Made by a program: the position numbers and the translations under genes
The notes under the pieces: model-generated
What the model saw: only the letters and a program-made list of their open reading frames with translations
The model's database searches: none
Told to the model about the DNA's origin: nothing
In this document: positions 7,565-29,600 of the stretch, piece by piece
Layout of the letters: every line of letters begins with the position of its first letter
Numbering within the stretch: position 1 is the first letter of the stretch
Origin: Catajapyx aquilonaris
Taxonomy: Eukaryota
Direction of reading: 5' to 3'
NCBI GenBank assembly: GCA_000934665.2
Contig: KZ538015.1
Location: forward strand, 124,001 to 158,059
DNA: 34,059 nt

Positions 7565-7680
7565 CGCGCATGCAAACTTTACCAGTTTGGACCAATCAGA
7601 ATGCGTTTACACCATCCAGCATCCAGACATAGTACGCATGCGTCTGGCAAGGACGAGTTCCGATTGGCTGTGATCACGTA
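7565..7680 (+). promoter_or_regulatory. Probable promoter of the CK1 gene
   Basis: CCAAT boxes at ~7592 (CCAATCAG) and ~7662 (GATTGG). NRF1/Ewg-like CGCATGCG at ~7635 and GTTTACAC at 7605. A GA-rich, CpG-rich leader follows. Confidence 0.5.
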
Positions 7681-8046
7681 TCTTGTCTCATGTGAACGGC
7701 AAATACTTCACCTTTCGACCGCCAGTTGGCGTCAGAGTTGGAAATAAGAACAGTGGTTGGAAATAAGGCCTCCCTTTGTCTTCGGAGGATTGAGAGAGAG
7801 AGAGAGAAAAAAAAAAGGAGAAGAGAGAGAGCGAGCGAGCATGGCGGCCGTATCGGTCGGTTGCTGCTGTTCCTCTTCCTCCTGTTCCGTGGTGGCCCAC
7901 TGCCTCCCTGCGTAGTGCAAGGAACGGCCCTGGGGGTCCTCCTTCCTGGGCATCGAAGAGGGGGCGGAACCTGGGGAGGCGAGCTGGGCCTAAAGAAGAG
8001 AAAAGGAGACTCGAAAGGAAAAAGTGGGAGGAGGAGAGAAAGCGGC

Positions 8047-10695
8047 ATGGCCAACGCTTCTACCACCTCCTCCAGGACAGACGTCATCTCGGGGCTAGTC
8101 AAGGTATGGGTACAGCTGAAGCCCCACTCGCTTCAGAAAAAAAACAAAAAAAGAGGAATAAGTTGGCACCCCTGGGGCATGTGACAGGGTAGCCAATCTG
8201 GCCTGCTGTAGTTGAAAAGTCCTTACTTGAGAAAACTGGCACCCCTGGGGCAAGTGACAGGGTAGCCAATCTGGCCTGCTGTAGTTGAAAGTCCTTACTT
8301 GAGAAAAACAGTTGGCACCCCTGGTCGTGTGATACTGTTGCATGTAGTCGTGGTGCCTGCAGTTGTAAAAACGGTTGGCACCCTGCTTGTCATGTGACAC
8401 TAGACAGTTGCCTGTAGTAGTGCCTGTAGTTGACGGTTGGCACCCCTTGTGAATGTCATGTGAATGGCAGGGTTGCCAACTGTCAATGTCGACACATTCC
8501 AATTATTGTGAAAGATTGTTTACAGTGCATGATTCTCATTGCGCAATTTGCTTTGCTGCCAACTCTTTTTCTCAGCGTACAGAGAGAGAGATGGGAAAAA
8601 AAGTGTATGGGCCAAGAAAAAATGAGGTGAATAGAGTTGATTCACCTTGGCTTAATTATGCGATGAGTCATGAACATTGGATCGCTATGAATTATTAGAT
8701 CTGATGATATGCTGGGAATGCAGACTGCGACCTCGATCTGATATAAATGTAGCTGGCGACGATAACATGAACCGCATTGTACACACCGAAATGAACATAT
8801 TCGATTGTACTTTACTTTTCTCTAGAGCAGACACAAAAGGTGTTGCTGGGAACGTATAGTTGTTAGCATTATGCGGCCCATTGTGTCTGGCTGTTATTTT
8901 TAAGCTAGGTTATCAAGTGTTTGCATTGGGTGGATTTGGGAACAATGCGGCTCTTGAGATTCTTTCTCTCCCTTGCGAGGATCTGATCAATCTGTACAAT
9001 TATCGGATTGGGTATCTTGAGTGCACTCGGATGGTCTTGCGGGATTAAATTGCGCAACAGGCTCAAGTACGGGCAAGTGAAGTCCCAGCATGATCGGCCG
9101 AAATAAGGTCATATGCTGTACGTGATGTTTGGAAGAAAAGCTGCTTTTATGTGCCATTGTGCTTTTAAAAAATGAAATGGTTTCCATGCTCTGGATAACA
9201 AACAAACGTTGCTCTGTTTCTTAGGCTGTTGTTGGTGGGCAGTACCGCCTTGTGCAAAAGATAGGGAGCGGTTCCTTTGGTGACATCTACATGGGCATAA
9301 ACATCACCAACGGAGAGGTAATCCCGCAGTTGTACTTGTGGCATCGGGACTAATTCACCATTTGCATTTTTCAGAGAGTGGCTGTGAAGCTGGAGTCAAT
9401 CAAAGGAGCCCACCCGCAGCTTCTTTATGAGAGCAAGCTGTACAAATACCTTTCCAATGGGATTGGAATCCCGCAGACCAAGTATGACCTGCCACTTGTT
9501 GCACATAATATGAAGTCACTCATGATATAACTTGTTACAGATGGTACGGCCAGGAAGGTAACTACAACGTACTTGTCATGGATTTGTTGGGACCGTCCCT
9601 TGAGGATTTGTTCAACTTCTGCTCTCGACGGTTCAGCCTGAAGACGGTGCTCCTGCTTGCTGACCAAATGTTGACCCGCCTTGAGTTCCTTCACGCCAAA
9701 AGCTTTATACACAGGGACATTAAGCCGGACAACTTTGTCATGGGATCGGGCAGTCAAAGCAACAGAGTAAGCTGCCGTTAACGCCTTTCGGTGGGAGCAA
9801 GCTTATCAGTTGTCGCTTACTTCTCAGGTGTTCATGATTGACTTTGGATTGTCCAAAAAATACCGTGACAACATTAGTCGTGTGCACATTCCATACCGGG
9901 AGGATAGGAACTTGACTGGCACTGCCCGATATGCGTCCATCAATGCGCACAAGGGAATCGAGCAAGGGTAAGTGACTCCAAATGTAAGTTCGTAAAAAAA
10001 GTAACTTATGCTTTTTTGAAACAACGAGTGAACCGGTGTCATCCTTCAAGTGCACTTAATTAAAAGTACTGTTTAATCTGTCAGGCGGCGAGACGACATG
10101 GAGTCCTTGGGGTATGTCCTAATGTACTTCAATAGAGGGAGCCTTCCCTGGCAGGGACTCAAGGTGAGGATTATTTCTGGGTGGGGGAACTGCTGTAATT
10201 ACTGAAGAGGCATGTGCATAATCACTGTACTTTTGTCATGCTCTCAAAAGGCGGCTACTAAGAAGCAAAAGTATGAGAAGATTTGCGAAAAGAAGATGTC
10301 GACGCCAGTGGAGGTTCTCTGCAAGGTAACAGGTTTTTGAAAATATTGCGGTTGCGATGATCCGAGCAGTAATAGTTACAACTTTTAGTCCTGATCTGTC
10401 AATTAACAATTTTTTGATGGAAATGTTACACATGATAGTACGAGTGCCGATATAATTGTTACATGTCTTCCAGGGCTACCCGAGTGAGTTTTCCCTGTAC
10501 CTGAACTACTGCCGGAGCCTCCGTTTCGAAGAGGCCCCTGACTACATGTACCTCCGGCAGCTTCTTCGCAACATGTTTCGCAACTTCAACTACCAGTACG
10601 ACTACCTTTTTGACTGGTGCCTGAAGCAAAAGGCTCTCGAGGCAGTCAGAGGAACCCTCCAGGCCATTGCCACTCCCGGTGAGTCTCTCTCGTAG
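8047..10695 (+). CDS. CSNK1A1: Casein kinase 1 alpha-like Ser/Thr kinase (332 aa if the last donor is read through; C-terminus uncertain)
   Basis: Exons 8047-8103, 9225-9317, 9375-9481, 9541-9766, 9828-9967, 10085-10163, 10251-10325 and 10474-10695, all GT-AG and phase-consistent. Motifs include [98 protein letters not shown] and [15 protein letters not shown], which are alpha-type. Exon 1 ([19 protein letters not shown]) is less certain. A strong donor G|GTGAGT at 10679 suggests a further exon. Confidence 0.93.
8161..8482. repeat. Tandem repeat in CK1 intron 1
   Basis: Two near-identical ~73-bp units (TGGCACCCCTGGGGCA.GTGACAGGGTAGCCAATCTGGCCTGCTGTAGTTGAAAGTCCTTACTTGAGAAAA). Three shorter degenerate GTTGGCACCC units follow, then an inverted GGGTTGCCAAC at ~8470. 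Confidence 0.85.
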
Positions 10696-13600
10696 GCAGT
10701 TAAACTCTTCACACTTTTTTATCCTTTTTTTTTTTTTGAAACGAAAACTTAGTAGGTGGTGGTAGGGAAGAAAAAGTTTCCTAAGTTTGTCATTGTTTTT
10801 CTTCCCCCCAATTTTTGTAGCGAACTGTAGTGTGGACCCTGGTGGATGCAAGAGGATCCAAGGCAATTCCTTTTGCATTGCTCACTGGTCTTTTGCACCT
10901 GTTCCCAGCATGCGAAGTTCTCAAAGAAAGTGACCCCCCCTTCTTTTTTTGTACAATTTTTTTTTACACACAAAAAAACACTGCGGGAAAATTTATCTCA
11001 GGACATCTCTTGTGGTTGTGATAATGACGTGTGCGAATAGCACTCTTTTTTTTTCATTTAGGGTTGCTATTTTGATTTTTCCAACTGGCGCCCCGATTTA
11101 CAATGGACTATTTTAAGTGCTGGATTTCAAGATATTTTTAAACAAAATGTACATTGTTTTTGCCAAACTTGTGCGGTGGTCACAGCTTTTTTGAAGGAAA
11201 AAAAAAAGAAACGAGTGGCCAATGTTCCTCCCCCTCCATTATTTGTAATACTTGACAAAAAAATATGAAAAGTACTCAATGGAATGCTTTTGACTTCTTT
11301 TTTTTTTATGGGAGTAAAATTTTCAACACTGTAAATATTGGCCTTTTTTGTGGTTGATTGATTGCTCGAATTATTCGGTGCCCTCTGAAAGTGTAATTGA
11401 AATAATCACTCGATCAAATTCAAATTGGCAATACTGTTAGTCACGAACAAATTTTGCAATACGGTTTAATAGCTATTGGATTTGTACGCGATGAAGATAT
11501 GGAGGTTTATTATTATTATTATCATTTTTCTGAGTAATGTGGTCTACATATATTAAGGTGCTACAGTCAATTTCAGACATATTTTAGGATTAAGCTTTCA
11601 TGTCTCTAATGGTCGGTTTAAAAAAATTAATTTCAGTGTAATTTTTGCAACCATGCCATGCTTTCTTACCAAAATGAATCGAAATAGGTTACGTGAAGAT
11701 TTTGACTCCAGGATTACAATACACGTACTCATGTTGGTAAAGAATAACGATATTATGCTTGTGGTTTCTTCCAATGTGGCCTTTTCGCTCAAATTTGGTC
11801 AGTCTGGAGCATGATCCAAGTGTACTTGCAAAAAAAAACTTTCTATCAAGTAGTTGGTCTTCCATTTTCCATTTTTTAGTTGCAATTATTTCGTATCAGA
11901 TTGGAAAGTGTGAGGCTATTTTGAACAAAATATGAATGCGTAGAAAGAGTACATACACCACTTTGCATGTACTCCCTGCAATTTTTTTTGTTTAAATTTA
12001 AAAAAAAAGAAAGAATGTTATTTAATTTGCGTTTGTTTGTCAAGTAGAAACTGACCAGTCATTTTTTTGTTGCAGGTGGCCATTAAAATGCAAGAATTTG
12101 CATAGGCAACGGCCAAGTGACAGGTTTTAAGTGATTTAAAGAGTGGCCTTAACACATGATGTGTTCCAGGTGGTTAGGATTTTTTTAAAAAACGAATGGG
12201 GGGGAAAAGAAAGTGTGTAAATGGACTCAACGTTGAAGAACAGTCGTACTTCAGAACGCATCTCCTAAGTGGCATTACAGGAATTTTCTTACGGGTTAGC
12301 ATTTGAGTTCAGTTGCCAATTAACGAAGCCTCTCGGAAGCATGTGCGAATGGATTCTGCCACACTCCAATAATTTTTTTGGTGTAATGAATAACTGTTTT
12401 TTTGTCAGGCATGGATGTATGCCCAAGCCGTTGGCGTAAATGTTTCAGAATGATTGGTTGTCCCACCAGTTATTGATATAAATGAATAATAGTGTCACAC
12501 ATGGGCATGAATTGGAAAACTGATGAGCCGCCTGAATTAAAAGACGTTGCTTTTGGATGTGCTTCACATTTTTTTTTTTTTAAAGAAAAAAAGACTGTAA
12601 TTCAAAATGCTCAATGTGGTGTATAATAGTGCTGGGAATGAATTTTTTCTGCGGTTTACACATACTGTGAAATAGTCAACATGTATTACTTCTTTTTTTA
12701 TGTTGCATGCCATATGTGCACCTTTTTTTTTTTTTTTTTTGCAGGATGTGTGGTTTACCTGTTCAGTATATGTTTAAAGACAAAATGTTGTTGAATCAGG
12801 ACCAAATGCCCCGCGTCTCGGTTTGGAAACTCTCGCAGTGTCTACGTCAAGTTTAAGCTTAAGCAAATGTGATAAAAAATAATAATAATTTCGTTGTCAA
12901 GTGTTTTGCTTGGACTGACTTAGATCGCTGGATAAAAATTCTTCAAAATTCCTATTGAAAATATTTGTTTGCAAATGTGGAAGAAAAACAAATCTTTTCA
13001 CGCCTGATGTGTGCGAGCAGAGCAGTTGTGTTTCTATATACATGAAGAAAAGAAAAAAAAAAGGCTGCTAGTTTTTTGAATGCGATGTTTTTTGGCCACT
13101 TGGAGGATCAACTCATTGCAGTGTTACTGGTGTCTAGTTCATTTCTTAACTTGGTCATCCTACTGATGCATTCCGTTGAGTGCTTGACAGTGGTGTTGAA
13201 AAAAAAAATGACGATTTTCAACTGTACAGGAGTTTGTGATAATAAATATAATGCTCCGTGAACAACGTGTTATGATCTGCTCAAACGACACATTACAGGT
13301 GTGGGAGTGGGTTGGGACGTGTTTCCAACATTTGAGACCCTGTCGGATTCATAATTCTGATCCCCAACGTTTGTTTAGTTTTAAGGTTACGCATCTTCAA
13401 TTATTCAACCGAAATCATACGCTTTGGAATGTCACATTTGAAGTGACAGTTTTATTGCTTCCGCCTCACGAGATTTTAGAAGATTGCTGACGATGTAAAA
13501 TTGCAGGAAATTTTTCTCTTCCATCCGAGTGGGACCTGTCAAAAGATGAAACGTATTGCATTTTGTTACTGCAAACAAGGACGTCACATGTACGCTGCGT

Positions 13601-13727
13601 TATACGGCTGTACATTTTGAAATATTCTTAACGATAATGAGCTGTGTCATATCTTACATATTTCACGATGAGACATGCACTCATGTTTGTCGTGTGGTTT
13701 CCCTCGATCTTGTTCCGTCAAGTGACG

Positions 13728-14012
13728 TCACTTACAGCACTGTTGCTTTACGTAAACATACAGCTCTATTGAGAGACTGACGAGTTGCGTGCTCACCCAG
13801 GCTAAGAAGAGGCTTTTGAGGACTTCGAATTCAGTTTTTTCGTAGACAGCGACAGCCAGGCTGAAGCAGTACCACAGGAAGAGGGATACTGTTGCTGCCA
13901 CCAAGATGGTGGCGAAGACCATGAGAATCGCAGTAATTACCCTGCAAGGGAATAGAGACCGCTGCAATTATCATCACTAATGCGAATGATTTAAGATGTA
14001 CCAGTTCGCCAT
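13728..14012 (-). CDS. Small membrane protein H (74 aa, about 2 TM; possibly 106 aa with a third exon 13535-13432)
   Basis: Exons 14012-14002 and 13941-13728, joined by a 60-nt GT-AG intron, give MANWVITAILMVFATILVAATVSLFLWYCFSLAVAVYEKTEFEVLKSLFLAWVSTQLVSLSIELYVYVKQQCCK*. A donor T|GTAAGT at 13735 joins in frame to the acceptor at 13536 (...CPTRMEEKNFLQ...LQM*), with AATAAA at ~13451-13456. No recognised family. Confidence 0.55.
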
Positions 14013-14180
14013 GATAATTTTGAACAATCGGTTGAGCTGTTGACTAATGTTACCATGCACATCGCCTGGCAATGGTTCATGGACAATTTACTGACTACTG
14101 TTGGACTTTGGGCTATGTGGCACATACTTAAATTAATCGACATGCAATTTTCTAAGTAACCGTCTCGTTTCGTGCTGTGC

Positions 14181-14503
14181 TCAACCTTCGGCTACTGTAG
14201 ATTTTTCCGATGCCTCCATGACGGTGAAGGCAACATGTAGGCATACGTAAGCAGTTGTCAGCAATAAAAAGATGAGGTGGTTATGATCCCACCCAGGCGC
14301 CATCCACTCATCGTACAGGCAGATGACCGTAACGGTGAAAGAAATGGCAAAGTAGCAGATGGGAAGGAGCATGTCAAGCGATATTGCTGCAAGAGAAGGG
14401 CAGATATTTTCGTATTAACAAGGTTTAATTTGCGAGGAATATTATTCTTACCTGTATGACCTAAATGACTTGCTGACTCACCAGGCTGGAAACAGTTTGC
14501 CAT
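14181..14503 (-). CDS. Small 2-TM membrane protein G (63-75 aa)
   Basis: The exon starts at acceptor CTCTTGCAG| (14386) and encodes MLLPICYFAISFTVTVICLYDEWMAPGWDHNHLIFLLLTTAYVCLHVAFTVMEASEKSTVAEG* from ATG 14372. An upstream ATG at 14503 is in frame via donors at 14481 (GTGAGT) or 14451 (GTAAGA), giving MANCFQP|AISLD. It is similar to exon 2 of ORF A. Confidence 0.6.
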
Positions 14504-14525
14504 TCCGTTTATCTGCTGCTGTAGG

Positions 14526-14714
14526 TCAGGACATGATGAAGTTGGTGGGAGGCATCCCGATTGCAAAGGAAATCCCCACAATTACTATTACAAGGCTTAA
14601 TATGTCGTGCGCGATAACCTCAAAGGGTGCAGACCAATTTCTCAAATCACCGACTAGCAGCCAGCCTGATAAAATCATGCACATGGCGAATATGATCAAA
14701 AAGACAATGTCCAT
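14526..14714 (-). CDS. Small 2-TM membrane protein F (62 aa)
   Basis: MDIVFLIIFAMCMILSGWLLVGDLRNWSAPFEVIAHDILSLVIVIVGISFAIGMPPTNFIMS*. The ATG lies 14 nt after a strong acceptor (68-nt intron 14796-14729, GTATGC...TTTTGCAG). The upstream exon has an in-frame stop. Confidence 0.6.
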   Translation of the reverse strand: MDIVFLIIFAMCMILSGWLLVGDLRNWSAPFEVIAHDILSLVIVIVGISFAIGMPPTNFIMS

Positions 14715-15156
14715 GCAAACTGGTGCGACTGCAAAAGAAAAGAAAAAAAGTATCATTATCCTAATTAACACAAATTGGAAGGAGGTGCAAGCATACCTGC
14801 TATTACTCGGAATATACGTTAGCTTGGTGACAGTGCATCATAACTTGTACGTAGTCACCTCCGTCTTTGGCTGCGATTCTACAGCAATTTCACATGACTT
14901 GCTGTACAGTACTGCAAAATTTTATCAACTTGAAGCATTTTTTTTTTCCTTCCAATTTCAGTATTTGTATCCAGGTTTCTATGGTTTTGGTACCAAATTG
15001 TCAAACTTGCGATGAGCCCATTCAGATAATTTTGGCATGAATCACGTTTCCATTTCCTACCCGAGGTTTTCACATCCGATGGTAAATTCAATTTTTATTG
15101 CTCTGACATAACTTTGGAAGTCACTAAGAAAGAAGTAGTTTGTACGACACTTTTTA

Positions 15157-15643
15157 TTATGTTGCGACTGATCTTCTGCGCACCCTCCGTGGACGACGTA
15201 ATTTGAAGAAGGATGTATTTTCTGAGATGAAAACTATGCCAAAGAATGCGTATGCGATGCTACAGCAGATCAGGAAGTAGAGTTCCGCAGCGAAAGGGCA
15301 AGCTCTAGGCTTGTACCACTCGCCATAGATGCTAATGCAGAGGAAGGATAGTCCAGCCAAGTAGCCAAACAGATATGTGAGATCCGGAAAAATTGGCTGC
15401 AAGGAAAGGTGTGTGAGTCGGGGTTTATTGTGAAGTGGCAGAGAATGAACTCACATTTGTAACCAACTTGCTGATTTGGAACGAAACAAGGGCAGCACTC
15501 CACATCACTAAGAATATACTAGCTGCTAGAGTCTGAACGGGTTCAGGTGCTCGAGGTTCGCAGCCGAACAGAATGAGAGCCAGGATGTAGCATAGTCCAA
15601 TAAGCATGAGCGTAGATATGGTTAATGGGATCAGATGGTACAT
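15157..15643 (-). CDS. Small 4-TM membrane protein A (142 aa, 2 exons, basic C-terminal tail)
   Basis: Exons 15643-15455 and 15396-15157 are joined by a 58-nt phase-0 GTGAGT...TTGCAG intron. There are four hydrophobic segments and the tail KLRRPRRVRRRSVAT. AATAAA overlaps the stop, and another lies at ~15094-15099. Confidence 0.68.
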
Positions 15644-15722
15644 TGTGATGGGAAAGGATGCTGAAAAATAGATGTATGAACCGTCTCAGTATCGCTGACG
15701 TCTGGATTTAAAAAACACTCAC

Positions 15723-15965
15723 CTATGAGTCCAGGAATGCTGCATCCATCCTGCGGAATTCCGACTCATAGTGGTCGTACTGGCTTATGCGACGTTGGCC
15801 AATTGACATAGTTTCGGTCATTTCTTTCATCGCAAAGATAACACCCAAGACTCCTGTCAGAATGCTGATGTATATCACTGCATCGGGATTGTCCCACATG
15901 CTAAAGAGCAAGGTACCAGACAGGCCCAAAAGAGCGACGGATCCACCAAGCAAGTAACGCTCCAT
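15723..15965 (-). CDS. Small 2-TM membrane protein B (80 aa)
   Basis: MERYLLGGSVALLGLSGTLLFSMWDNPDAVIYISILTGVLGVIFAMKEMTETMSIGQRRISQYDHYESEFRRMDAAFLDS*. The ATG has a good context (GCAATGG) 19 nt after acceptor TTTGCAG|. The TAG is followed immediately by donor GTGAGT. Confidence 0.65.
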   Translation of the reverse strand: MERYLLGGSVALLGLSGTLLFSMWDNPDAVIYISILTGVLGVIFAMKEMTETMSIGQRRISQYDHYESEFRRMDAAFLDS

Positions 15966-16163
15966 TGCGGATAAGCACCGAGTGCTGCAAAGCAAATGAG
16001 AAAAATTACAGTTTAGCAGAAGGACTTTAAAAAGAAAAGTACTTGCCTGATTTCACTTTCTGAATTTTATGACTTGTTGAAATATTTGGTTGTTACTATA
16101 GGTACGTAATCTGACAATGAAGTTGTGTGACTTGCTCTCGTTACAAGTCACAGGTGCTCAAGT

Positions 16164-16352
16164 CTACAGTGCATAATATTCAATAATGCATCCACCTAGG
16201 AAAAGAGCAAGTCCAATGGAGATGCAAGTGAAGCCGCAGCAGAAGCTATTAGCTGACGTGTTGGGGCTCGGATGATGCCATGATGTGGAAACGACCATGG
16301 ACCAGCAGGTTAGAAGGGCTGTGGCTGTGTACAGAGCTGCTACAGGTCCCAT
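16164..16352 (-). CDS. Small 2-TM membrane protein C (62 aa)
   Basis: MGPVAALYTATALLTCWSMVVSTSWHHPSPNTSANSFCCGFTCISIGLALFLGGCIIEYYAL*. The ATG is 8 or 16 nt after tandem AG acceptors (16361, 16369). An in-frame TGA lies two codons upstream of the ATG. Confidence 0.55.
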   Translation of the reverse strand: MGPVAALYTATALLTCWSMVVSTSWHHPSPNTSANSFCCGFTCISIGLALFLGGCIIEYYAL

Positions 16353-16441
16353 GAATCAGGCTAATAAACTAAGGAGAAACGACATGAAAGTGTAACGCAA
16401 GCAGCACATGATAAGTTTCTCACCTGCTGCGTCTGAAGTAG

Positions 16442-16612
16442 TCATGTGGCAGTGACCCTACTTGCCCCCATCCCAGTTGCCCACATCAGAAAAAGCATGA
16501 ACGTAATGATGTTTGTATTGGTTGCAACGTCGCACCAATTTTGTGCCAAGAACATGAAGCTTCTAATCACCCCAATTACATACAAAAATGTAATGATGGG
16601 TGCGGGTGCCAT
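16442..16612 (-). CDS. Small 2-TM membrane protein D (56 aa; below the ORF-track cutoff)
   Basis: MAPAPIITFLYVIGVIRSFMFLAQNWCDVATNTNIITFMLFLMWATGMGASRVTAT*. The ATG is 11 nt after acceptor TTTCAG| (62-nt intron 16685-16624). The stop is 18 nt before donor CAG|GTGAGA at 16423. Confidence 0.55.
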   Translation of the reverse strand: MAPAPIITFLYVIGVIRSFMFLAQNWCDVATNTNIITFMLFLMWATGMGASRVTAT

Positions 16613-16828
16613 GAAATATCACACTGAAATGAAAGTAATATTAATATTGGACCGTAACTTATCAGAATGAGTGCAGGTTGTTCACCTGTGAATTTATAAG
16701 ACTTGTTTACACGGATCACATCACCGGGCAATGATTATTGTTGAAAGTATTGGCTCGTTATGTGAACTTGTTTAATAGCTTGGGTGAAACTACACTAATT
16801 ACATAACACAATATATGTAGCGTTCTGA

Positions 16829-17131
16829 CTACTCTTTGGAGCTTTCCTTTGCTTTCTTCGACTTCTCCCCGATGACCTGGTCCACCATTTCGATGGCCTT
16901 CTTGGCTGGCATCTTTGACAGCACAGCCTTCAGGTCGTCCATGACCACAGTGTCCTCACCAGTCGGAGTGGTGTATGCAGCCATGATCAGATCTTCCAGG
17001 CAGTTGAACTCCTCAGGTTTGAAGCGGCCTGAATTCTCCAGGTTGTGCATCAGCTCCACGTAGACCTCACGGGTAGTCCGGCGATGGCACTTCTTCCTTG
17101 GCTTCTTCCAGAAGGAAAGGAGGGATCCCAT
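16829..17131 (-). CDS. Uncharacterised 100-aa protein E with N-myristoylation motif and polybasic patch
   Basis: MGSLLSFWKKPRKK fits MGxxxS plus a basic cluster. The ORF is clean and GC3-rich like the conserved genes, against AT-rich flanks. An acceptor CCAACAG| sits 1 nt before the ATG. Confidence 0.72.
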   Translation of the reverse strand: MGSLLSFWKKPRKKCHRRTTREVYVELMHNLENSGRFKPEEFNCLEDLIMAAYTTPTGEDTVVMDDLKAVLSKMPAKKAIEMVDQVIGEKSKKAKESSKE

Positions 17132-18434: not shown

Positions 18435-20126
<1,692 letters not shown>

Positions 20127-20565
20127 AAGGAATGGTAACATCGCGAGAGAGTAGTAATTTGTAGGCAAACAATTTAAAAAAAAACAGAGAGAGGGACAAT
20201 CGTGGTTGCACTTTAAAAAGTCAGTATTTTGTGTTCTTGCGTATTTGTGGGGGTCGACATTCCAGTTGTTTCAGTGTATATAAGTGTGAGTGGGGACATG
20301 TAGAGAGAGAAAAAAAAAAAAGTATAATAATTATGATTTGGGTTTCAAAAGTGTCAAGATTTTGTGGTCCAAACGTTGTTATGTTGAAGAATGTAAAGTT
20401 GATTGTAGTGAATAAAGCGTTGAACTCGTGCGCCATTGTTTCATTGCCCGTACTACTTTGCTGGCATCTGGGAATGTGCAGTGTGCCATTTATCTTACCG
20501 TAATGTGAGGCATTTTTTTTTTGCTTCAGTAATAACATAATAAGCATCTATGTACTGGCAAAAAT

Positions 20566-20980
20566 TAATAAGCAGCTAGTATGTACCTACTGGAAATAAC
20601 ACAATAAGCTGCTATCTATTGGCAGAAAATAACAAGCAGCTATCTACTGACAAAATAATAAGCTGCTATCTATTGGCAGAAAATAACAAGCAGCTATCTA
20701 TTGACAGAAAATAACAAGCAGCTATCTACTGACAGAAAATAACAAGCAGCTATCTACTGACAAAATAATAAGCTGCTATCTATTGGCAGAAAATAACAAG
20801 CAGCTATCTATTGACAGAAAATAACAAGCAGCTATCTACTGACAGAAAATAACAAGCAGCTATCTACTGACAGAAAATAACAAGCAGCTATCTACTGACA
20901 GATAATAACAAGCAGCTACAATGTACCGACTGAATATAACAATAAGCGGCTACTGAGTGCCGACTGAATAATAAGCAGCT
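20566..20980. repeat. Minisatellite, 27-28 bp unit
   Basis: More than a dozen tandem copies of AAGCAGCTATCTA(C/T)TG(A/G)CAGAAAATAAC and the variant AAGCTGCTATCTATTGGCAG. The array degenerates at both ends. Confidence 0.95.
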
Positions 20981-21273
20981 TTTATTAGTGAATATGGGAC
21001 CAACTAACTCAGCAATAAGGAGTGAATGGTGAGTCATTTTTGCAGTGTGTTTACATGTTCCAGCGAACCTGGTGCTCATGTGTTGTCCGTCTGCGATTGG
21101 TCAATTTTGTATTAAGACATCATCTGATTGGTGTGTGCGTCCTGTTGGCAGCCTTCCTTTTGAACATTTGCACGTGTAAACCCTCCGCCATTGCTGCACT
21201 TTTCCAATCGTTCCATCTTTTCTGATCTCGCCGATTTTGATCCAATTTTTTCCAATTTTGGCAAGACGCAAAG

Positions 21274-22210
21274 ATGGTTCAAGCGTGGTACATGGACGAC
21301 TCTGATGCGGACCAGCGTCTGGAGCACAAGCTGGACCCGCCCGAGTACGTGGAAGTGGAGGAACTGAAGACTCTTTGCGGGGTCCTCTATTGGAAGGTAC
21401 ACACTTGTTTGGAATATTTTTTGTTGACGTGACGTCATTACATAAAAACATGCATGTATACATACATGTTCCTTACTCCCAGACCGAGAGGACAAGATGT
21501 TTAATTTTTCATGGAGGTTAGTGTGAGGTTGTTTCCGACAGATGTGCCACGATGCATATGTTCGATTGATCCCTTTCGTGTTGTTGCAGTTGGACGCAAA
21601 GACCTACAAGGAGGATGGCAAGTTGGAAGAGATAAAGAAGGAGCGGGGTTACACGTACGAGGATGTCTGCGAAGTGTCCAAGGAGAAGATGCCTGACTAT
21701 GAAGACAGGGTAAGCTTCCGGATTGCAGTTGGGACAAATCTTAACATAAAAATAGATTGTCGGTTGATTTCTTTTTGAAATACCGGTAAATGCAGTTATT
21801 GGCTTATGATTGCGATGCAAATGTGATTATTACCGCTTGCAGATCAAGATGTTTTTCGAGGAGCATCTCCACACGGATGAAGAGATCCGCTTCATCTTGG
21901 ATGGTTCCGGCTATTTTGATGTTCGTGACCGCAAGGACCGTTGGATTCGAATTTTGGTCGAACGTGGAGATCTGCTGATTGTCCCTGCTGGAATTTACCA
22001 TCGCTTCACCATGGATGTTAATGTGGGAACATAAAATTATTGTAAGCTGTACACCTGGCAGGAAACTGAAGATTGGATTCTACTTTCCAGAATTATGTGA
22101 AGGCAATGCGGCTGTTTGTTGGTGAACCTGTTTGGACGCCCCACAACCGTCCAGCAGACAACATACCAGCCAGGAAGGAGTATCTCGCCCAAATGGAGCG
22201 AGGATTCTAA
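21274..22210 (+). CDS. ADI1: Acireductone dioxygenase (ARD/ADI1), copy 1, 180 aa
   Basis: Exons 21274-21396, 21590-21709, 21843-22022 and 22091-22210. Motifs [50 protein letters not shown] and [24 protein letters not shown] is at 22615-22620. Confidence 0.97.
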
Positions 22211-22278
22211 GCACAATTGACTGAACCAGGCAATTCTGATGTATCCAAACCACAGTCTTATTTTGCTTTGGTCTGCTG

Positions 22279-22543
22279 GTTACTCCCCCTCTTATCGCAT
22301 TCAGGGGGTGATGGGGTGGTAATGTGTTTTATGGCCGCTGTGGTGCTGAAGTTCTGCAGCCATTTCTGCGTTGCCTGGCGGGACTCCTTTGCACGTAATA
22401 GAAGATGGTAGATTTCAACCGTAACCTCTATTGAATGCGTCTTTGCCCATTGCGATCGCTGCAGAAGTTCATCGCCGCAGCAGCCATAAAGGCATTGTCA
22501 CCTCGCTGAATAGGGATTTATATGGAGTTGGGGTACGAGTGAC
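22279..22543. repeat. Imperfect inverted repeat (MITE-like insertion) in the 3' UTR of ADI1 copy 1
   Basis: Arm 22279-22360 (...TTTATGGCCGCTGTGGTGCTGAAGTTCTGCAGC) matches the reverse complement of 22458-22543 (...TTTATGGCTGCTGCGGCGATGAACTTCTGCAGC). The ~300-bp segment is absent from the copy 2 3' UTR. Confidence 0.75.
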
Positions 22544-23084
22544 AGGGGGCTGATCAATCTTCCACACGTGACGTTTTGAAAGTTTATATATTCGATTCTG
22601 GGATTTTAGTGCCAAATAAAGTGATATATTTTGCTTACGAGACACCCTGTATTTATAATATTGCTAACTATGTACAGAAACATTTTAAACACCTAGCAAA
22701 GTCAATAATAACTAGATAATTCTGTGCAGGGAGAAAAAAAAAAGTTTTCATGAATACACTTGGATTCAACATAATATTGTAAGCTGCTACTGTTGGGATG
22801 AAGATAACAAAATAAGCAGCTACTATGTAATGACAGCATTAAGCTGCTTATATTGCTGTCTGTTTACACGTTCCAGCCAGCCATGTGCTGATGCATTGTG
22901 CAGTTCTTATTGGTCAATTTGGGATTAAACTATCACCTGATTGGCTGTGGTGTCCTGTTGTTAGTCTTCTCTTTGATCATTTGCACGTGTAAACCCTCGG
23001 CCATTGCTGCACTTTTCCAATCGTTCGATCTTTTCCGATCTCTCCGATTTTGTTCCTATTTTTCCAATTTTAAAAGACTCAACG

Positions 23085-24125
23085 ATGGTTCAGGCTTGGT
23101 TCATGGACGACTCTGATGCTGACCAGCGTCTGGAGCACAAGCTGGACCCTCCCGAGTACCTCCAAGTGGAGGAACTGAAGGCTCTTTGCGGGGTCCTCTA
23201 TTGGAAGGTATACACTTGTTGGAACATTTGGTGACGTAACTACATTACATAAGAATAAGAAGCATGTGATGAAATGAGTTAATTTCGTTCCTTACTGCCA
23301 CTACATGTTTAATTCTGCAGGGAGATTAAAGTGTGAAGTTGTTTCTGGCAGATGTGCTTATGTTTGATTGATCCCTATTTCGTGTTGTTACAGTTGGACG
23401 CAAAGACATACGTGGAGGATGGAAAGTTGGAACAGATAAAGAAGGAGCGTGGTTACACTTACGCAGATATCTGTGAAATGTCCAAGGAGAAGATGGGGCC
23501 TGACTATGAAAAGACAGTAAGCTGCATGATTGCCAGTTGGGACAAACTGCTTAACATAAAAATAGATTGTCGGTTTATTTTTTTTAAAGTAATGCAGTTA
23601 CTGGCCTGTGATTGCAATCAATCAATTTATTTCACTGTTTATCCCAGACCCATTGCAATATATGTAGTACATTTGCAGATTGCTGATTATAGCATAGAGA
23701 AGGCCATGTATGATTCGAGTTACAGTAGGCCCATGTTATCATGCCATTTGGCCACATACATTAGAAGATAATAAATCGATTTCAATTGTTCCAGTGTAGG
23801 CTCTTGGAGGATTAGCCAGATATTGTCTCTTTGTAATGGTGGTATGTGATTTTGTAGTTTAAACCTGCCTCCCTTCTGGGCATTCACTAAGAATATGGAC
23901 CCAGTCATTAAGATTCTTATAGTTACAAAGATTACAATTTTCATCAGGATTAATTTGGAGGCTTCTTCTGTTACCTAATGGTATCCAATTTATTAGAATT
24001 AAATCTGAGGCATGCCAACATTCTACTAACAATAAGATTTAATATATGGTACAGGAACTCTATGGAGAGTGGAAGTATCTATAATTATCATAGTATATCA
24101 ATTTCATATGGTTAGAAGTTGATTT

Positions 24126-24194
<69 letters not shown>

Positions 24195-25335
24195 CCTGGG
24201 GCTTTTTAGGGGATCATCTTTTTAATTAACAGACTTTAATCATTGCCTTTGCTGTGATGGATTTTAATAGTGGGAGGAAATGGGAGAACCCCGAGAAAAC
24301 CCACGTGAACATGGAGAGAACCCATCGAAACTTTATCGACATAACTATCCTCCGTCCGACCCAGGGATCGATCTCGGGACCTTAGAGGTGGAAGGCTGTG
24401 GCGCTAACCACTCTGCCACCGTGCCGCCCAACAAGTCGACTTATTGGGACAAGCAATATTAATTTTTTCCTTCGATATCCAGCATCGTTTGTGTTAGTGT
24501 TGCATACTTTCGCAACCAGTTTTTGTCATCTCTCGCCGTGAAATTTCTAATTGATTGCCCATATTCGTTGAGCAGTTTATCTAGTTGCTTGATCCAGTTA
24601 TATTTTATTGGGGTTGTATTTTAATACCTAAATAAGTATATGTTGAAAGTATTTCTAATTGATTATCTTCTAATATAGAAGTGTCAGTGTCGGAAAGTCG
24701 ATCACCTTTCCTAAATATTATCACCTTCGTTTTAGAAATGTTAATCAATCCATTATTCTTAAGGTAGTTACCTGTGTGGTCAAGTAGCTTCTGTAGGTAT
24801 AAATTTATTGTCCGCTAACAAGACAATATCAAATTATACAAATAGTAAAGCTTTAATATCGTGACCGTTGTCAAGCCGTCACCTTGCAATTGGATTCCAT
24901 CCGTGTTATGACTTGTCAGCCAATGCATGACCTGTGATAGCAATGTTGACATGCTTGTTATGCTGCTTGCAGATCAAGATGTTTTACGAGGAGCATCTCC
25001 ACACAGACGAAGAGATCCGCTTTACTTTGGATGGTTCTGGCTATTTTGATGTTCGTGACCGCAAGGACCGTTGGATTCGAATTCTGGTTGAACGTGGAGA
25101 TCTTCTGATTGTCCCTGCTGGAATTTACCATCGCTTCACCATGGATTCTAATGTGGGAACATGATTGTAAGCTGTACACCTGGCAGGGAACTAACAGTTG
25201 GATCCTACTTTCCAGAATTACGTGAAGACAATGCGGCTGTTTGTTGGTGAACCTGTTTGGACACCTCACAACCGTCCAGCAGACAACGTGCCAGCCAGGC
25301 AGGAGTATCTGGCACAACTGGAGCGAGGATTCTAA
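23085..25335 (+). CDS. ADI1: Acireductone dioxygenase (ARD/ADI1), copy 2, 181 aa
   Basis: Exons 23085-23207, 23394-23516, 24973-25152 and 25216-25335. The frame is intact and the metal ligands (HLH...E...H) are retained. Intron 2 is expanded to 1456 nt versus 133 nt in copy 1. AATAAA is at 25437-25442. Confidence 0.95.
23619..24930 (-). mobile_element. 5'-truncated, decayed non-LTR retrotransposon (LINE) fragment
   Basis: The 14-bp TSD is CCTGTGAT(T/A)GCAAT at 23605-23618 and 24931-24944. The minus strand gives [16 protein letters not shown] (degenerate LLFADD motif) and [31 protein letters not shown]...YTYLGI (RT C-terminal part). It also gives [22 protein letters not shown] (CCHC knuckle). 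The 3' end has AATAAA plus (ATTG)n. Confidence 0.88.
24129..24429 (-). mobile_element. tRNA-derived SINE with V-domain-like core and (ATT)22 tail, nested in the LINE
   Basis: The minus strand begins GGGCGGCACGGTGGCAGAGTGGTTAGCGC (A box) and then GAGATCGATCCC (degenerate B box). The core GTTCTCTCCATGTTCACGTGGGTTTTCTCGGGGTTCTCCCATTTCCTCCCAC resembles the V-SINE core. The tail is (AAT)22 at 24129-24194. A possible eroded TSD lies at 24114-24128 / 24431-24445. Confidence 0.85.
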
Positions 25336-25610
25336 GCACCTGAGACTGAACCGCCCAATTCCGATGGACATCCAAACTGACATCTTCCACACATTACGTT
25401 TTCAAAGTTTATACAAATTCTGGGATTTTAGTGCCAAATAAAGGGATCTATTTTGCTTACGAGACATCCTGCATTTACACCATTGACAACTACGTGTACA
25501 CTAACATTTTCAACAACCACCAAAGTCAATAATAACTTGATTATTGTTTGCAGAGGGAAAATAGATTTTCCCCCCCCTAAATACAATAATTGGATGCAAC
25601 ATAATATTAG

Positions 25611-25982
25611 AAGCTGCTATTGATGTGTGATAATCGGTACATAATTAAGCTGCTACTGACGTCAATAAGCAGCTTTATGATTAAGCTGCTACTGGCGTCA
25701 AAGCCACTACATTAATAAGCAGCTTCATGATTAAGCTGCTACCGAAGCCATAGCCGCTACATGGATAAGCTGCTACTGGTGACAAAGCAGCTACATGAAT
25801 AAGCTGTTACATGATTAAGCTGCTACCGAAACCATAGCTGCTACATGGATAAGCTGCTACCGAAGCCATAGTCGCTTCATGATTAAGCTGTTACTGACGC
25901 CATAGCCCCTACATGAATGACGTCATCATTGTAATAACCGCTACATGGTTAAGCTGCTACTGACGTGCAATAACTGCTACAC
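25611..25982. repeat. Degenerate tandem repeat built on AAGCTGCTAC (~34-bp unit)
   Basis: CATG(A/G)(T/A)TAAGCTGCTACCGAAGCCATAGCCGCTA and variants are repeated. The core is shared with the 20566-20980 minisatellite. Confidence 0.85.
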
Positions 25983-26069
25983 GATGATGCAGTTAGATAC
26001 GGGCCGAAAAAGCGGCCACGGCTGGTGCTGCCCTCTGTGCACCTTTCACCGAAAGAGGGCTACGACTGC

Positions 26070-26279
26070 GTCTGTTTACACGCGCCAGTTTGCCTTCCTG
26101 CGCATGCGTTCCTGCATACCCTTCATCTCTATTCGTTCTTTCCGCCAAGTCGTCCATTCGGATTGGTCCGCTTGAATTCCCCCCTCCCACCCTCCCCCAG
26201 CTCTCCTTCGCCTCCATCCGTGACGTCACAAATGAATTAGGAAGTGACCTGCATCCGAGCAAAAAGGGGAAAAAAAAGA

Positions 26280-26312
<33 letters not shown>
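26070..26312 (+). promoter_or_regulatory. Probable promoter/leader of beta-TrCP
   Basis: TGTTTACAC at 26073, NRF1-like TGCGCATGCG at 26099, GATTGG at 26161, CRE TGACGTCA at 26221, GGAAGT at 26240 and a (GA)n tract at ~26283-26312. Confidence 0.55.
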
Positions 26313-26317
<5 letters not shown>

Positions 26318-26632
26318 AGGGGCCGCCTCTCCTTCTCCTCTCTGCAGGTTTTCATCGCGAGGAAATCCCTGCAGTTTTATCCCTGCAGCATTCTATATTG
26401 CATATCCCCTCTCCTCTACGACGCCCCACCCGCCTCGCCAGCCCCGTCTCTCTCTCCCCCGTCCCCCCCCGTCCCACCAACTACTCCGAGGGGGTGGCCT
26501 CTGCTGCAGCATTTTAGTAGTGTCGGTTCGGCAGAGGGGGAGACGAGGAAGAGGGCAGAGAGAGAAAGGGGCCAACTGGATGCGGAACATCTCCTGGTAG
26601 GGCAGCCAGAGAGAGGAGAGCAGACGCCGCAG

Positions 26633-29600
26633 ATGGAGACGGACAAGATCATCGAGGACAACGCCATACAGGTACGGAAAAAAGGAGGTGGTGGACTAGG
26701 GCTGGCTTCCAAAATGTAGGACACTTCAAGTAGTGGGGGGAGAGAGAGTTCGAATGGTCGATCCCTTGCAGTCAAATACATGCCACCTCAGGATGGTCTG
26801 CATGGAATTATAGTGGGATTTGCCATAGGATAGACGTACAGTGGAGGGGGGGTCAGTCACCACAGGACATGTTCTGATCCCCAATAAAATGGCTCGGACA
26901 TTTCCACATAAGGTCGCTGGGAAGGCAGCCTGCAAGCAGATTATAAATGCAGGACATTAATGGCGTTGTACCGGTGCCGCCATGAGCTGATGGCCGCAAA
27001 AGAGCGAATCAGTACATCGCTTCGATTTGCTCTTTTTCCGCCAGCAGCTCATGCGCCACCAGTACAACACCATTAATGTCGATATGCTTCAGGGTGGAGT
27101 ACTGTACTGCCCGTGGATTGTGTTTGCAACTGCTACCCTCCGTAACTACGTAAGAAATCTCATAAGGCCAACAGTGAGCATTTAACAAGAATAAGAGCGT
27201 TTTGAAGCACTGAAATGCTCACTAGTTGGCAGCCAGTTCATTGCTGGTATGTGGTGCTATTAATTCATCCAATCTGGGCATTAAACAATCACTTCGATAA
27301 ACTGGATGCCATATTGTACCTGCAGCCAATGGAAGTTAATGGGAGTGTTATTGCTCACTTGCATGCGGGAAAAGGCAGTTTAAAGGCTACTTAATCACCG
27401 TGCTTAACAATATACAGAGGTGGGAAGCTGGCCTTAAGCTCTGGATAGCACGTACCCCTATTCCCATGCGGTGACCTCCTAATGACATTATTCTCATTGA
27501 CCCACTCTTTTAAACTGACCTAGCCTTCTGTTTCACATGGAAATTGGCAGCATCAACTCTGATTGACAGTGATTTGAGTACCTGCATTTTGGATTTGAGT
27601 TAATTTAAAGAAATGTTTTTCAGAGATATTTTTCAAGTCGTGGGCAAGGTTACAGATAGGTGGGTGTTTGCAGTGGATGTGACCTGCAATTAAAGGGGTT
27701 GTAAAAGGGGGATTACTTTCCTGATTGAAGTTCATGCAATGCAAAGATATGAGAACATAAATTTTCCTTATTCGCCGCCTCATCCATCCATATTTCTGCC
27801 TGATAAAGGATGACTGTTACTTGGGTAATTCCCCAGTAAATGACATGGTTACATCTCCACACGCCAATAATGAACAAAAGCAGCATGGAAAGTATTGACG
27901 TAGCCTGTTTTATTGGCAGGACTGTGCTTTATGGAGCATGAAAGTGATATTTTAAATGCCCTGATATGATAATAATGGAATTTGGCAAAGAAATGAAAAG
28001 TTGGTCTTCCTCCATTTGTTTTCAGGTTTGGCCTATTTTCCTTGCGTGCTAAGTTGTAACCATGCGGACCTTCTCCCCCCTTGAAAACATGTGCAGTGGT
28101 ATGGCATGGTTTTTATGGTTGAGAAGAACACAAAAGAGTGTTTTCTTTTGTTAAAAACAATACTTTTACTTGCCTTGCTATTTTCATACTTCTAACCACG
28201 CTACTGTTGGCAGTAATCATGCTTAACCTGGCAATGTTTACAATATAAATCAACATGCAAAAATGGAAGTTTCTGAAGGGTTAGAACCCTGCAGGTAATG
28301 TATGTTAAATGCGGTAATTATGTTCCTAACCAGTTGTAGTAAATGAGTGAAATCCGAGACAGTTCCTGTCACTCTTAAACAGGTTGAACCGGGCTATTTT
28401 AAAAGTAGAGTTCATTTTATTTCTTCTCCGTTTTTTTTTTTTGCATGCTAAATTAGAAGAGAGTTGGAAGTGATACTGTGGTGAAAGTGTTCATGTGCAC
28501 AAAAAGAAATGTTAAGATGTGCTGAATTGTTAAGTGTGTCATTCACTCTCTTTGTGTCTGGTAAAGGAGCCGTGCTGGCATTTTTATGTGCAGAAGCTAG
28601 GGGGGGGGAGATAACACCAGAAAATTCTGTACAGTGCGGTGCTTTGTTATGCTGGTGCTGAGGAAAGGCTTTGAGTAAGTCACTTTCCATATCAACCAAT
28701 TCGACATCTGTTCTTGGAGGAATAATCAGGCTGCAGGAATCGAGCGAGCGTAGTACAATAACACATCACAATTGGACCTGTCGACACTTGTTCTGACGTA
28801 GCAACGAGGGTAATCTACCCAAATTGTCAGAATAGAGTTATAATTATTGTGGAATCTCTCGTCCCTGGAATTGTGTTGCATAAGTGCCATTATGGCCATG
28901 CAGATGACCTCGCAAAAGTCACATGCTGGGTGAGAATTTATGGGAAACGAGTCACGTGATTGAGTCTCCCCTTACATGTTCAGTATCAGTATGGGTCATT
29001 GCTCTGAGTTGGCTGCGAGTCAGGTAATATCACCACGGGCTTACTGCTGCCTAAATAGTCATGAACTGACCAATTAGGGTGATACACGTGCTTAGTAAGC
29101 ATGCCCTTCCTATGTGCTGTGTAATCAAGTGTTGCATCACCGAGGGCCTCACATGAACAGTTTGCATGTCAAGTGCAACATGTCCAGCATTTACACAAAA
29201 ATATCAAGTAAAGTACATGCAATGCAACAGGAAACTTGTTGTTTTGGTTAGTGCTTGCTATATCTGAATGCTTGTGGATTTCAAAATACGAGACCATTAC
29301 ATTTGTCGATGGTGCTGTGTAAATGATCGCAATGTTACACGTTATGCGTCACAAAATAGTGAAGAATGTGTGAACGTCCAAGGAATGAGTACTTGGAAAA
29401 AAAATGTGCTGCACTTCTTGACGAGGTTCTTGATATTGACCGAATAATTAGCTATACTGAGCTGCATGACGTGAAGCTGTTGGTCCGTTGCTATCTTAAT
29501 CTTTGTCCTACACATGTGCGTGGCCTTGAAGGCTCATTGGTTCTGGGAAGAAGACCATTTCCTTCACCCCTAAAGTCGAGGAGATTATTGCGATGAACTT

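Follow-up and report, generated by a model that had tools for sequence, protein, structure and literature searches.

A candidate cluster of two-helix membrane mini-protein genes with predicted introns between cistrons in Catajapyx aquilonaris

We analyzed a 34,059-nucleotide (nt) stretch of the Catajapyx aquilonaris genome (assembly GCA_000934665.2, contig KZ538015.1, positions 124,001 to 158,059; hereafter the window, numbered from its first letter) that carries seven small open reading frames (ORFs) on the minus strand, extending from 16612 to 13728. These ORFs, which in the order of that strand we call cistrons D, C, B, A, F, G, and H, are built from eight membrane modules of two transmembrane (TM) helices each, with one module per exon (Table 1). 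A preliminary description of this DNA had reported seven co-oriented hydrophobic ORFs in ~3 kb, and all of them were found on the minus strand where it had placed them. Cistron A is the only two-module protein of the array; its modules are fused across a 58-nt phase-0 intron (15454-15397), and a W-x-x-P motif that recurs among the modules is found in the second of the two. In cistron C, an in-frame TGA lies two codons ahead of the ATG, within the exon.

Table 1. Coordinates of the array, its predicted introns and signals, and the other genes of the window (aa, amino acids; GC3, GC content at third codon positions; PWM, position weight matrix score; Inr, initiator; a slash within a donor marks the exon end)
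Feature	Position	Strand	Remarks
Casein-kinase-1-like gene	~9.2-10.6 kb	+	from reading of the translation only, without family search
AATAAA after H	13456-13451	-	likely 3' end of second unit
Cistron H	13922-13728, or 14012-13728 including mini-exon	-	64 aa, or 74 aa with mini-exon; ORF and splice signals
Predicted intron, G/H-start to H	14001-13942 (60 nt)	-	weak GT donor, strong acceptor
Cistron G	14503-14181, module exon 14386-14181	-	75 or 85 aa; W-x-x-P in loop
Predicted intron, F/G-start to G	14451-14387 (65 nt) or 14481-14387 (95 nt)	-	both in frame for G
Cistron F	14714-14526	-	62 aa; hairpin, W-x-x-P at residue 27, T at -3 of ATG
Predicted intron, 5' non-coding exon to F exon	14796-14729 (68 nt)	-	donor CAG/GTATGC, PWM 8.5; acceptor 10.6
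Cistron A	15643-15455 + 15396-15157	-	142 aa, four TM helices, two modules
Predicted intron within A	15454-15397 (58 nt)	-	phase 0; donor and acceptor signals
Predicted intron, B to A	15722-15661 (62 nt)	-	donor TAG/GTGAGT, PWM 10.4; acceptor TTTTTCAG
Cistron B	15965-15723	-	80 aa; hairpin, W-x-x-P at residue 24, charged C-terminal tail
Predicted GC-AG intron, C exon to B exon	16046-15985 (62 nt)	-	perfect donor CAG/GCAAGT; acceptor at 15984 scores 6.9; GC 0.32
Cistron C	16352-16164	-	62 aa; W-x-x-P from residue 25
Predicted intron, D to C	16423-16369 (55 nt) or 16423-16361 (63 nt)	-	donor CAG/GTGAGA, PWM 10.8; GC 0.38
Cistron D	16612-16442	-	56 aa; hairpin module, W at residue 26, T at -3 of ATG (weak start context)
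Candidate core promoter, first unit	16698-16665	-	TATAAA 16698-16693, Inr-like TCATTC 16670-16665
ORF E	17131-16829	-	100 aa, not hydrophobic; GC3 0.74, like the window's housekeeping exons
V-ATPase B gene	~18435-20127	+	four exons
Acireductone-dioxygenase-like gene	~23.1-23.5 kb	+	from reading of the translation only, without family search
Beta-TrCP-like F-box/WD40 gene	~29.7-33.1 kb	+	from reading of the translation only, without family search

What sets the array apart is the hairpin character of its ORFs and their clustering on one strand, not their length. Six ORFs that begin with ATG, span at least 50 aa, and have at least two TM helices by hydropathy occur within 2951 nt, compared to a mean of 0.07 and a maximum of two in 500 dinucleotide shuffles; the same shuffles gave a mean of 3.9 ATG-initiated ORFs of at least 50 aa, of which the array has nine. 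The rest of the window (~31 kb, both strands together) contains four ATG-initiated ORFs with at least two TM helices. Length alone is ordinary here, as other frames carry ORFs of 54-107 codons.

The modules also share a positional motif and a bias in codon usage. Five of the eight modules (C, B, the second module of A, F, and G) have a W-x-x-P that begins at residues 24-27, within the loop that follows the first helix; in D, only the W is present, at residue 26. In a motif-agnostic test, in which residues 15-40 of each module were shuffled and the best gapped dipeptide was scored, five units shared a dipeptide in 5 of 1000 trials (P ~0.005), and W..P never occurred in more than two. The excess of GC3 over total GC averaged 0.076 across the eight modules, versus 0.007 (standard deviation 0.059) in 217 null ORFs, with individual values of 0.14 for F and 0.15 for H (each at the 0.009 tail), 0.02 for the first module of A, and -0.02 for C. 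We regard this bias as a real but weak coding signature, which fits genes that are young, lowly expressed, or were coding until recently. Together, the excess of hairpins, the GC3 bias, and the shared motif suggest that the ORFs are real, related coding units. An AlphaFold2 model of F, made from an eight-row alignment, has helices at residues 2-23 and 29-53 with a mean pLDDT (predicted local distance difference test score) of 73; it agrees with the hairpin, to which it lends weak support, and adds little. The complex prediction for F with the G module returned 'no answer' with a score of 0.01, and was counted neither for nor against. At the DNA level, repeats within the array are only short and at chance level, and when the sequences ahead of D, B, and G2, or those at the F-G and G-H junctions, are aligned, the core in common is at most 8-10 nt.

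The window is animal nuclear DNA, and it includes a V-ATPase B gene whose product is 97-98% identical to insect proteins (369 residues searched), which points to an insect or a near relative as the probable host. The three introns of this gene, read by eye, are 57-76 nt long and have TGCAG acceptors, which makes them a local yardstick for genuine introns. The introns predicted in the array resemble them in length and in their TGCAG acceptors. The GC content of six of the seven predicted introns is 0.32-0.40, versus 0.44-0.50 in the ORFs, and the same contrast is seen in V-ATPase B. Between 16700 and 13701, the minus strand has six donors with a PWM score of at least 8, compared to a shuffle mean of 1.3 and to a single one on the plus strand. 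Five of these six are followed 50-100 nt downstream by a YKCAG acceptor, versus 0.27 expected, and none of 500 shuffles reached five; the intron between D and C, which has TTAG acceptors, was left out of this pair count. Statistically, the predicted introns are real. Both the excess of splice signals over shuffles and their placement between cistrons bear out the earlier proposal that canonical short introns fall mostly between the ORFs, and the junctions that accompanied that proposal are as it described them. Thus, the D stop is followed by 18 nt and a GTGAGA at 16423, with acceptor AGs that end at 16369 and 16361 and the C ATG 16 or 8 nt further on; the TAG of B is the last exon triplet before the GTGAGT at 15722, and 17 nt separate the intron end at 15661 from the A ATG; and the F stop lies 22 nt ahead of the ATG of G. 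The GC-AG intron between the C and B exons, for which a weak GT donor at 16056 offers a 72-nt alternative, is the least certain of those predicted; it would link C to B and complete a D-C-B-A chain. Because an intron needs both of its flanking exons on one pre-mRNA, D and C, B and A, F and G, and G and H would each be co-transcribed if these introns are used.

Two of the cistrons appear to start inside the exon of the cistron before them. The ATG of G (14503) lies in the exon of F, and two in-frame donors, at 14481 (PWM 10.3) and 14451 (PWM 11.0), can be joined to the intron end at 14387. Cistron H probably starts in an 11-nt mini-exon (14012-14002), followed by the 60-nt intron 14001-13942 and the module exon 13941-13728, as judged from splice signals and reading frame. 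The mini-exon ATG at 14012 is in the G exon, 168 nt past the G stop, and the intron joins it in frame to the H exon, where the hydrophobic stretch begins right at the acceptor, upstream of the ATG at 13922. Over its 11 nt, this H start agrees with the opening of G at 10 positions, and each of the two openings is placed where the exon of the cistron before it ends. G and H thus resemble copies of one unit, in which an intron separates a start mini-exon from a module exon.

We also considered whether the ORFs could be parts of one protein, pairing all GT and GC donors within the final 40 codons of an ORF with all AG acceptors that keep the frame of the next. No combination joined neighboring ORFs in frame with a donor above 6.1 plus a good acceptor, and all would remove TM sequence; donors scoring 8.3-11.0 lie at or just past the stops. 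The view that in-frame stops upstream of C, B, and F prevent fusion therefore stands to the extent that no plausible splice joins the ORFs; the stop upstream of B, however, lies in the predicted intron, and the B exon is open from its acceptor. Stops and phase mismatches are found only in the short linkers (~8-50 nt), with none in ~540 module codons, and this confinement makes random decay of one long gene an unlikely source of the array. With no usable in-frame joins and with disruptions only in linkers, the locus does not have the features of a single multi-pass gene or of a recent pseudogene. Read-through of the B TAG was rejected, since the frame past the junction differs from that of A. 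Splicing of ORF E to the modules through its internal donor at 16959 was likewise rejected, since the frames run into stops.

The candidate promoter of the first unit has the canonical 30-nt spacing between TATA box and Inr, and its predicted +1 (16668) is 56 nt ahead of the D ATG. The combined TATAAA and Inr-like pattern has two matches in the window, on both strands together, versus 0.29 expected; the only other match (25375-25413, minus strand) lies beside a duplicated segment. As the preliminary description had reported, a scan of the minus strand found no AATAAA between D and the start of A, whereas signals are present after A and after H; the scan added one inside the A intron. The four are at 15429 (in the A intron), 15158 (at the A stop), 15099 (59 nt later), and 13456. 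If the A intron is retained (15425-15643), a TAA within the AATAAA at 15429 terminates the first module after 72 aa, and intronic polyadenylation could produce a stand-alone hairpin from the first exon of A.

ORF E had been suggested as a possible head of the D-C-B-A unit. It is followed by an ATTAAA of its own (16776, 53 nt past its stop), and the TATA box and Inr stand before D; these signals argue against that placement and indicate that E is probably a separate upstream gene and that the first unit starts at ~16668. With its housekeeping-like GC3, no Pfam family, and no homologue in a word-based search, E looks like a real orphan gene. Its product begins Met-Gly, which may allow N-myristoylation. 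A further candidate regulatory sequence is the 8-mer CAAGTCWT, a motif picked after being seen, with six copies in the window versus 3.6 expected. On the minus strand, four of the six copies precede the G2, F, B, and D exons (14465-14472, 14894-14901, 16069-16076, and 16698-16705, respectively), and the one before D abuts the TATA box. The motif may represent a promoter element common to these exons or a remnant of duplication, and leaves room for internal promoters.

We favor, with modest confidence, the explanation that genes for small hairpin proteins are clustered here, that they share transcripts, and that their start sites are mixed. Repeated duplication of a one-exon module, which encodes two TM helices joined by a short W-x-x-P loop, would have given rise to a lineage-restricted tandem cluster of genes for small integral-membrane proteins. 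Of its seven predicted products, D, C, B, F, G, and H would each be one hairpin (56-85 aa), and the 142-aa A would be two hairpins fused together. Tight packing would put 55-68-nt spliceosomal introns between the cistrons, so that at least D and C, B and A, and F and G would be carried on common pre-mRNAs and, most likely, on common processed mRNAs; in full, the predicted units are D-C-B-A and F-G-H. The introns would be used and the ORFs translated, with the downstream cistrons reached by extra internal starts, by alternative processing, or by reinitiation or internal entry. The hairpins might insert with both ends cytosolic and the W-x-x-P loop outside, and might serve membrane complexes as small subunits or as regulators, possibly paired into four-helix units like that of A.

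Several results weigh against this explanation. Codon bias is modest, with GC3 of 0.48-0.63 in the modules versus 0.64-0.69 in the window's conserved exons and 0.74 in E, and no excess in C or the first module of A. Paralogy outside the motif is weak: the best of 28 pairwise z-scores was 2.7 (first module of A versus F), and leave-one-out profiles ranked the modules 2, 2, 13, 40, 85, 116, 193, and 298 among ~894 ORFs. Two introns are weak, that between C and B depending on a GC donor and that of H on a weak GT donor, and the splice PWM is a crude model, a generic consensus that we wrote ourselves and did not train on this genome, in which V-ATPase donors score from weak to 11.3. Homology searches, of which the large sequence searches were made with the second exon of A, B, E, or F, were blank. 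In Pfam, none of the eight modules (E-values up to 1 and up to 10), nor ORF E, reached a curated gathering cut-off, those of phospholamban/sarcolipin-type families included; phmmer with the second exon of A against 1.84 billion representatives gave one match, a low-complexity repeat protein; a word-based search with B found none among proteins near the query length; exact look-up found E, D, C, B, F, and H absent; metagenome scans with B and with F returned nothing; and a profile search of the PDB with the eight-module alignment gave nothing. Finally, the many ATGs ahead of the downstream cistrons, enumerated below, make polycistronic translation mechanistically hard.

These blank searches do not prove that the family is new to biology, as the lineage may be poorly represented. 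A word-based search with ORF E, again among proteins near the query length, also found no homologue despite its strong codon bias, which points to possible under-representation of the lineage in databases. The Protein Atlas had no match of at least 0.9 for the second exon of A or for B. A mitochondrial insert or a known multi-pass family was rejected, there being no Pfam or phmmer signal. The best Pfam score, 16.5-17.2 bits (E-value 0.0045-0.0073), was that of the G module against SPC25 (PF06703), the 25 kDa subunit of microsomal signal peptidase, which is like G in being a two-helix hairpin protein and matched it over the hairpin region. The 17.2 bits fall below the 24.3-bit cut-off, however, and none of the other seven modules matches the family; membership of G was therefore rejected, and we treat the match as compositional.

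The closest alternative is the strict form of the earlier proposal, in which exactly two mature mRNAs, D-C-B-A and F-G-H, yield all seven proteins by reinitiation or leaky scanning. Its two units agree with the predicted introns, which chain every exon of each, but the strict two-mRNA mechanism seems unlikely to us. The chaining speaks for it, as do the lack of an AATAAA from D to the start of A, the annotation of tetracistronic loci in Drosophila (PMC4528330), and the start contexts, in which position -3 is T in D, C, and F and a purine in B, A, G, and the mini-exon start of H; weak-then-strong contexts of this kind were used to argue for leaky scanning at sloth1/2, where, in its authors' account, the upstream ORF contains no competing starts (PMC9681215). 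The model mRNAs differ greatly in this respect. In D-C-B-A, the ATGs ahead of C, B, and A number 7, 12, and 21, respectively, with A starting at the 22nd, and in F-G-H those ahead of G and of the H start number 7 and 19. Leaky scanning to the downstream ORFs, which the preliminary description had allowed, is ruled out by these many preceding ATGs. Reinitiation is inefficient after ORFs of 56-80 codons, and the mRNA spacers that follow them here are 17-26 nt. The CAAGTCWT copies upstream of the D, B, F, and G2 exons hint, moreover, at several start sites. Among FlyBase loci, most polycistronic cases are described as a misfit to ribosome scanning, with internal entry possible, and where monocistronic alternatives exist, they usually originate at promoters further downstream (PMC4528330). 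For the array, internal promoters, alternative processing, or internal entry appear at least as likely as reinitiation or leaky scanning, and we consider a combination of shared and internal starts more probable than reinitiation on strictly two mRNAs. A bolder version, rather doubtful in our judgment, would make the array a working spliced 'operon' of one family with a hairpin cistron per exon. D with C, and F with G, would then be halves of a four-helix protein whose fused form is A, with gene fission or fusion under way; co-translation from a common spliced mRNA would fix the proportions of the hairpins in heteromeric pairs, and ribosomes would take a non-scanning route, such as internal entry or efficient termination-reinitiation at exon junctions.

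Three further alternatives were weighed. One or two older multi-exon, multi-pass genes with a hairpin per exon could have broken down, leaving at most A functional and the other ORFs as long upstream ORFs in the A leader. The lack of homologue or conservation evidence for any ORF, a codon bias below that of neighboring genes, and the in-frame joining of modules in A are in keeping with such decay, and a 2026 survey of Tribolium, in which 35 candidate polycistronic small-ORF genes are listed, allows that ORFs of this kind may be pieces of larger coding sequences; it notes that fragmentation of duplicated large ones can leave several small ORFs on a transcript (PMC13670568). We nevertheless regard decay as a rather unlikely account. 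All breaks fall within the linkers; every module keeps both helices, and five keep W-x-x-P, although the rest has diverged past detectable similarity, a pattern that needs long-lasting selection on each module. In addition, the ORF ATGs are placed 8-19 nt past an acceptor or at a mini-exon, with G at +4 in all but A. This placement, with a good acceptor 8-19 nt ahead of every cistron start, is what a spliced-leader trans-spliced operon would produce if the acceptors were trans-splice sites that resolve the array into monocistronic mRNAs, and trans-spliced genes of nematodes and tunicates have such a layout. Near-consensus cis donors lie 55-68 nt upstream of the acceptors, however, the neighboring V-ATPase B is nearly identical to insect proteins, and spliced-leader trans-splicing is not known in insects; we give this possibility almost no credence. 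ORFs that a spliced non-coding RNA contains by chance, or T-rich ORFs of recent origin without a coding history, would explain the lack of homologues, and T-rich non-genic sequence does have transmembrane potential, according to one study (PMC7005711); ORFs of 50-100 codons are, besides, common in other frames here. We find this quite improbable, as it leaves unexplained the excess of two-TM ORFs over dinucleotide shuffles, the positional W-x-x-P common to the modules, the raised GC3, and the coincidence of ORF boundaries with exon boundaries.

On our preferred reading of a hairpin gene cluster with mixed start sites, the array, known here from sequence signals alone, would belong with the polycistronic small-ORF genes of insects, such as tarsal-less/polished rice (tal/pri), Sarcolamban, sloth1/2, and those catalogued by FlyBase. 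The tal/pri peptides are ~11 aa long and soluble, with an LDPTG-type motif, and the Sarcolamban peptides are 28-29 aa long with one helix. No LDPTG-type motif was found in the six-frame translation of the window, so the array lacks the signature of tal/pri. Its ORFs encode hairpins of 56-142 aa, one per exon, with no Pfam family detected, and in these respects it differs from both systems. It would be like tal/pri (mille-pattes) and Sarcolamban in having several paralogous small ORFs in tandem on one RNA, paralogy and common RNA both being predictions here, as these genes are described in two reports (PMC9681215, PMC13670568), and like Sarcolamban in encoding membrane peptides. The nearest parallel is sloth1/2, a Drosophila bicistronic gene for paralogous membrane peptides of 79 and 61 aa that are 27% similar and are proposed by its authors to act in one complex (PMC9681215). 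It has in common with the array a very short spacer and a weak start context followed by a good one, and would also share with it distantly related small membrane peptides; the sloth1/2 peptides, however, have one TM helix each, are conserved to humans, and have, in that account, transcript and translation shown experimentally (PMC9681215). The array, in contrast, has two helices per peptide, up to four cistrons per unit, introns between them, many ATGs in its upstream ORFs, and no homologues in the databases searched.

The D. melanogaster annotation described by FlyBase includes 159 dicistronic pairs, 7 tricistronic loci, and 2 tetracistronic loci, with stop-to-start distances of -34 to 319 nt at polycistronic-only loci; small polypeptides are over-represented, and ~18% of the loci have similar genes that arose by tandem duplication (PMC4528330). 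The array would fit the FlyBase class 'gene with polycistronic transcript' in having adjacent ORFs on one processed mRNA, which here is a prediction, whereas the FlyBase models draw on cDNA, RNA-seq, and start-site data. We are aware of no catalogued case in which a cistron-per-exon arrangement extends over seven cistrons of one family, although the supplementary lists of the FlyBase paper may hold one (PMC4528330). The array differs from these known loci in its layout of one cistron per exon, in its modules of two helices, in how many cistrons it has, and in including a member made of two fused modules.

If expressed, the array would encode a compact family of two-helix membrane mini-proteins that has escaped standard gene finders as well as every homology search tried. 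A cistron per exon, with downstream start codons inside the last exon of upstream genes, would widen the range of insect polycistronic loci and provide a natural setting in which to study how ribosomes get to a downstream ORF when the long ORF ahead of it terminates at or close to an exon junction. It would also bear on how small membrane proteins evolve by duplication, fusion, and fission of modules. If neither expressed nor conserved, it would be one more decaying lineage-specific cluster of little wider interest.

Some minor features of the window were also recorded. In translation, the C-terminal tails of B (15723-15965) and A (15157-15396) both contain R-R-x-S, the basophilic kinase consensus, and the A tail is strongly basic. 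Rfam and tRNA scans of the whole window gave no match. A tandem duplication flanks the acireductone-dioxygenase-like gene (21040-25561) and comprises three pairs: 21040-21691 with 22853-23495 (80-89% match), 21835-22241 with 24965-25366 (88-94%), and 22595-22737 with 25417-25561 (82-87%). The long minus-strand ORFs in this duplicated region belong to no Pfam family. Two minisatellites are present, at 20570-20956 and 25626-25995, one with ~28-nt units (11 registered copies) and one with 34/84-nt units. Lastly, GA/CT-rich low-complexity tracts at 7674-8192 and 25993-26787 give rise to long ORFs in several frames on both strands.

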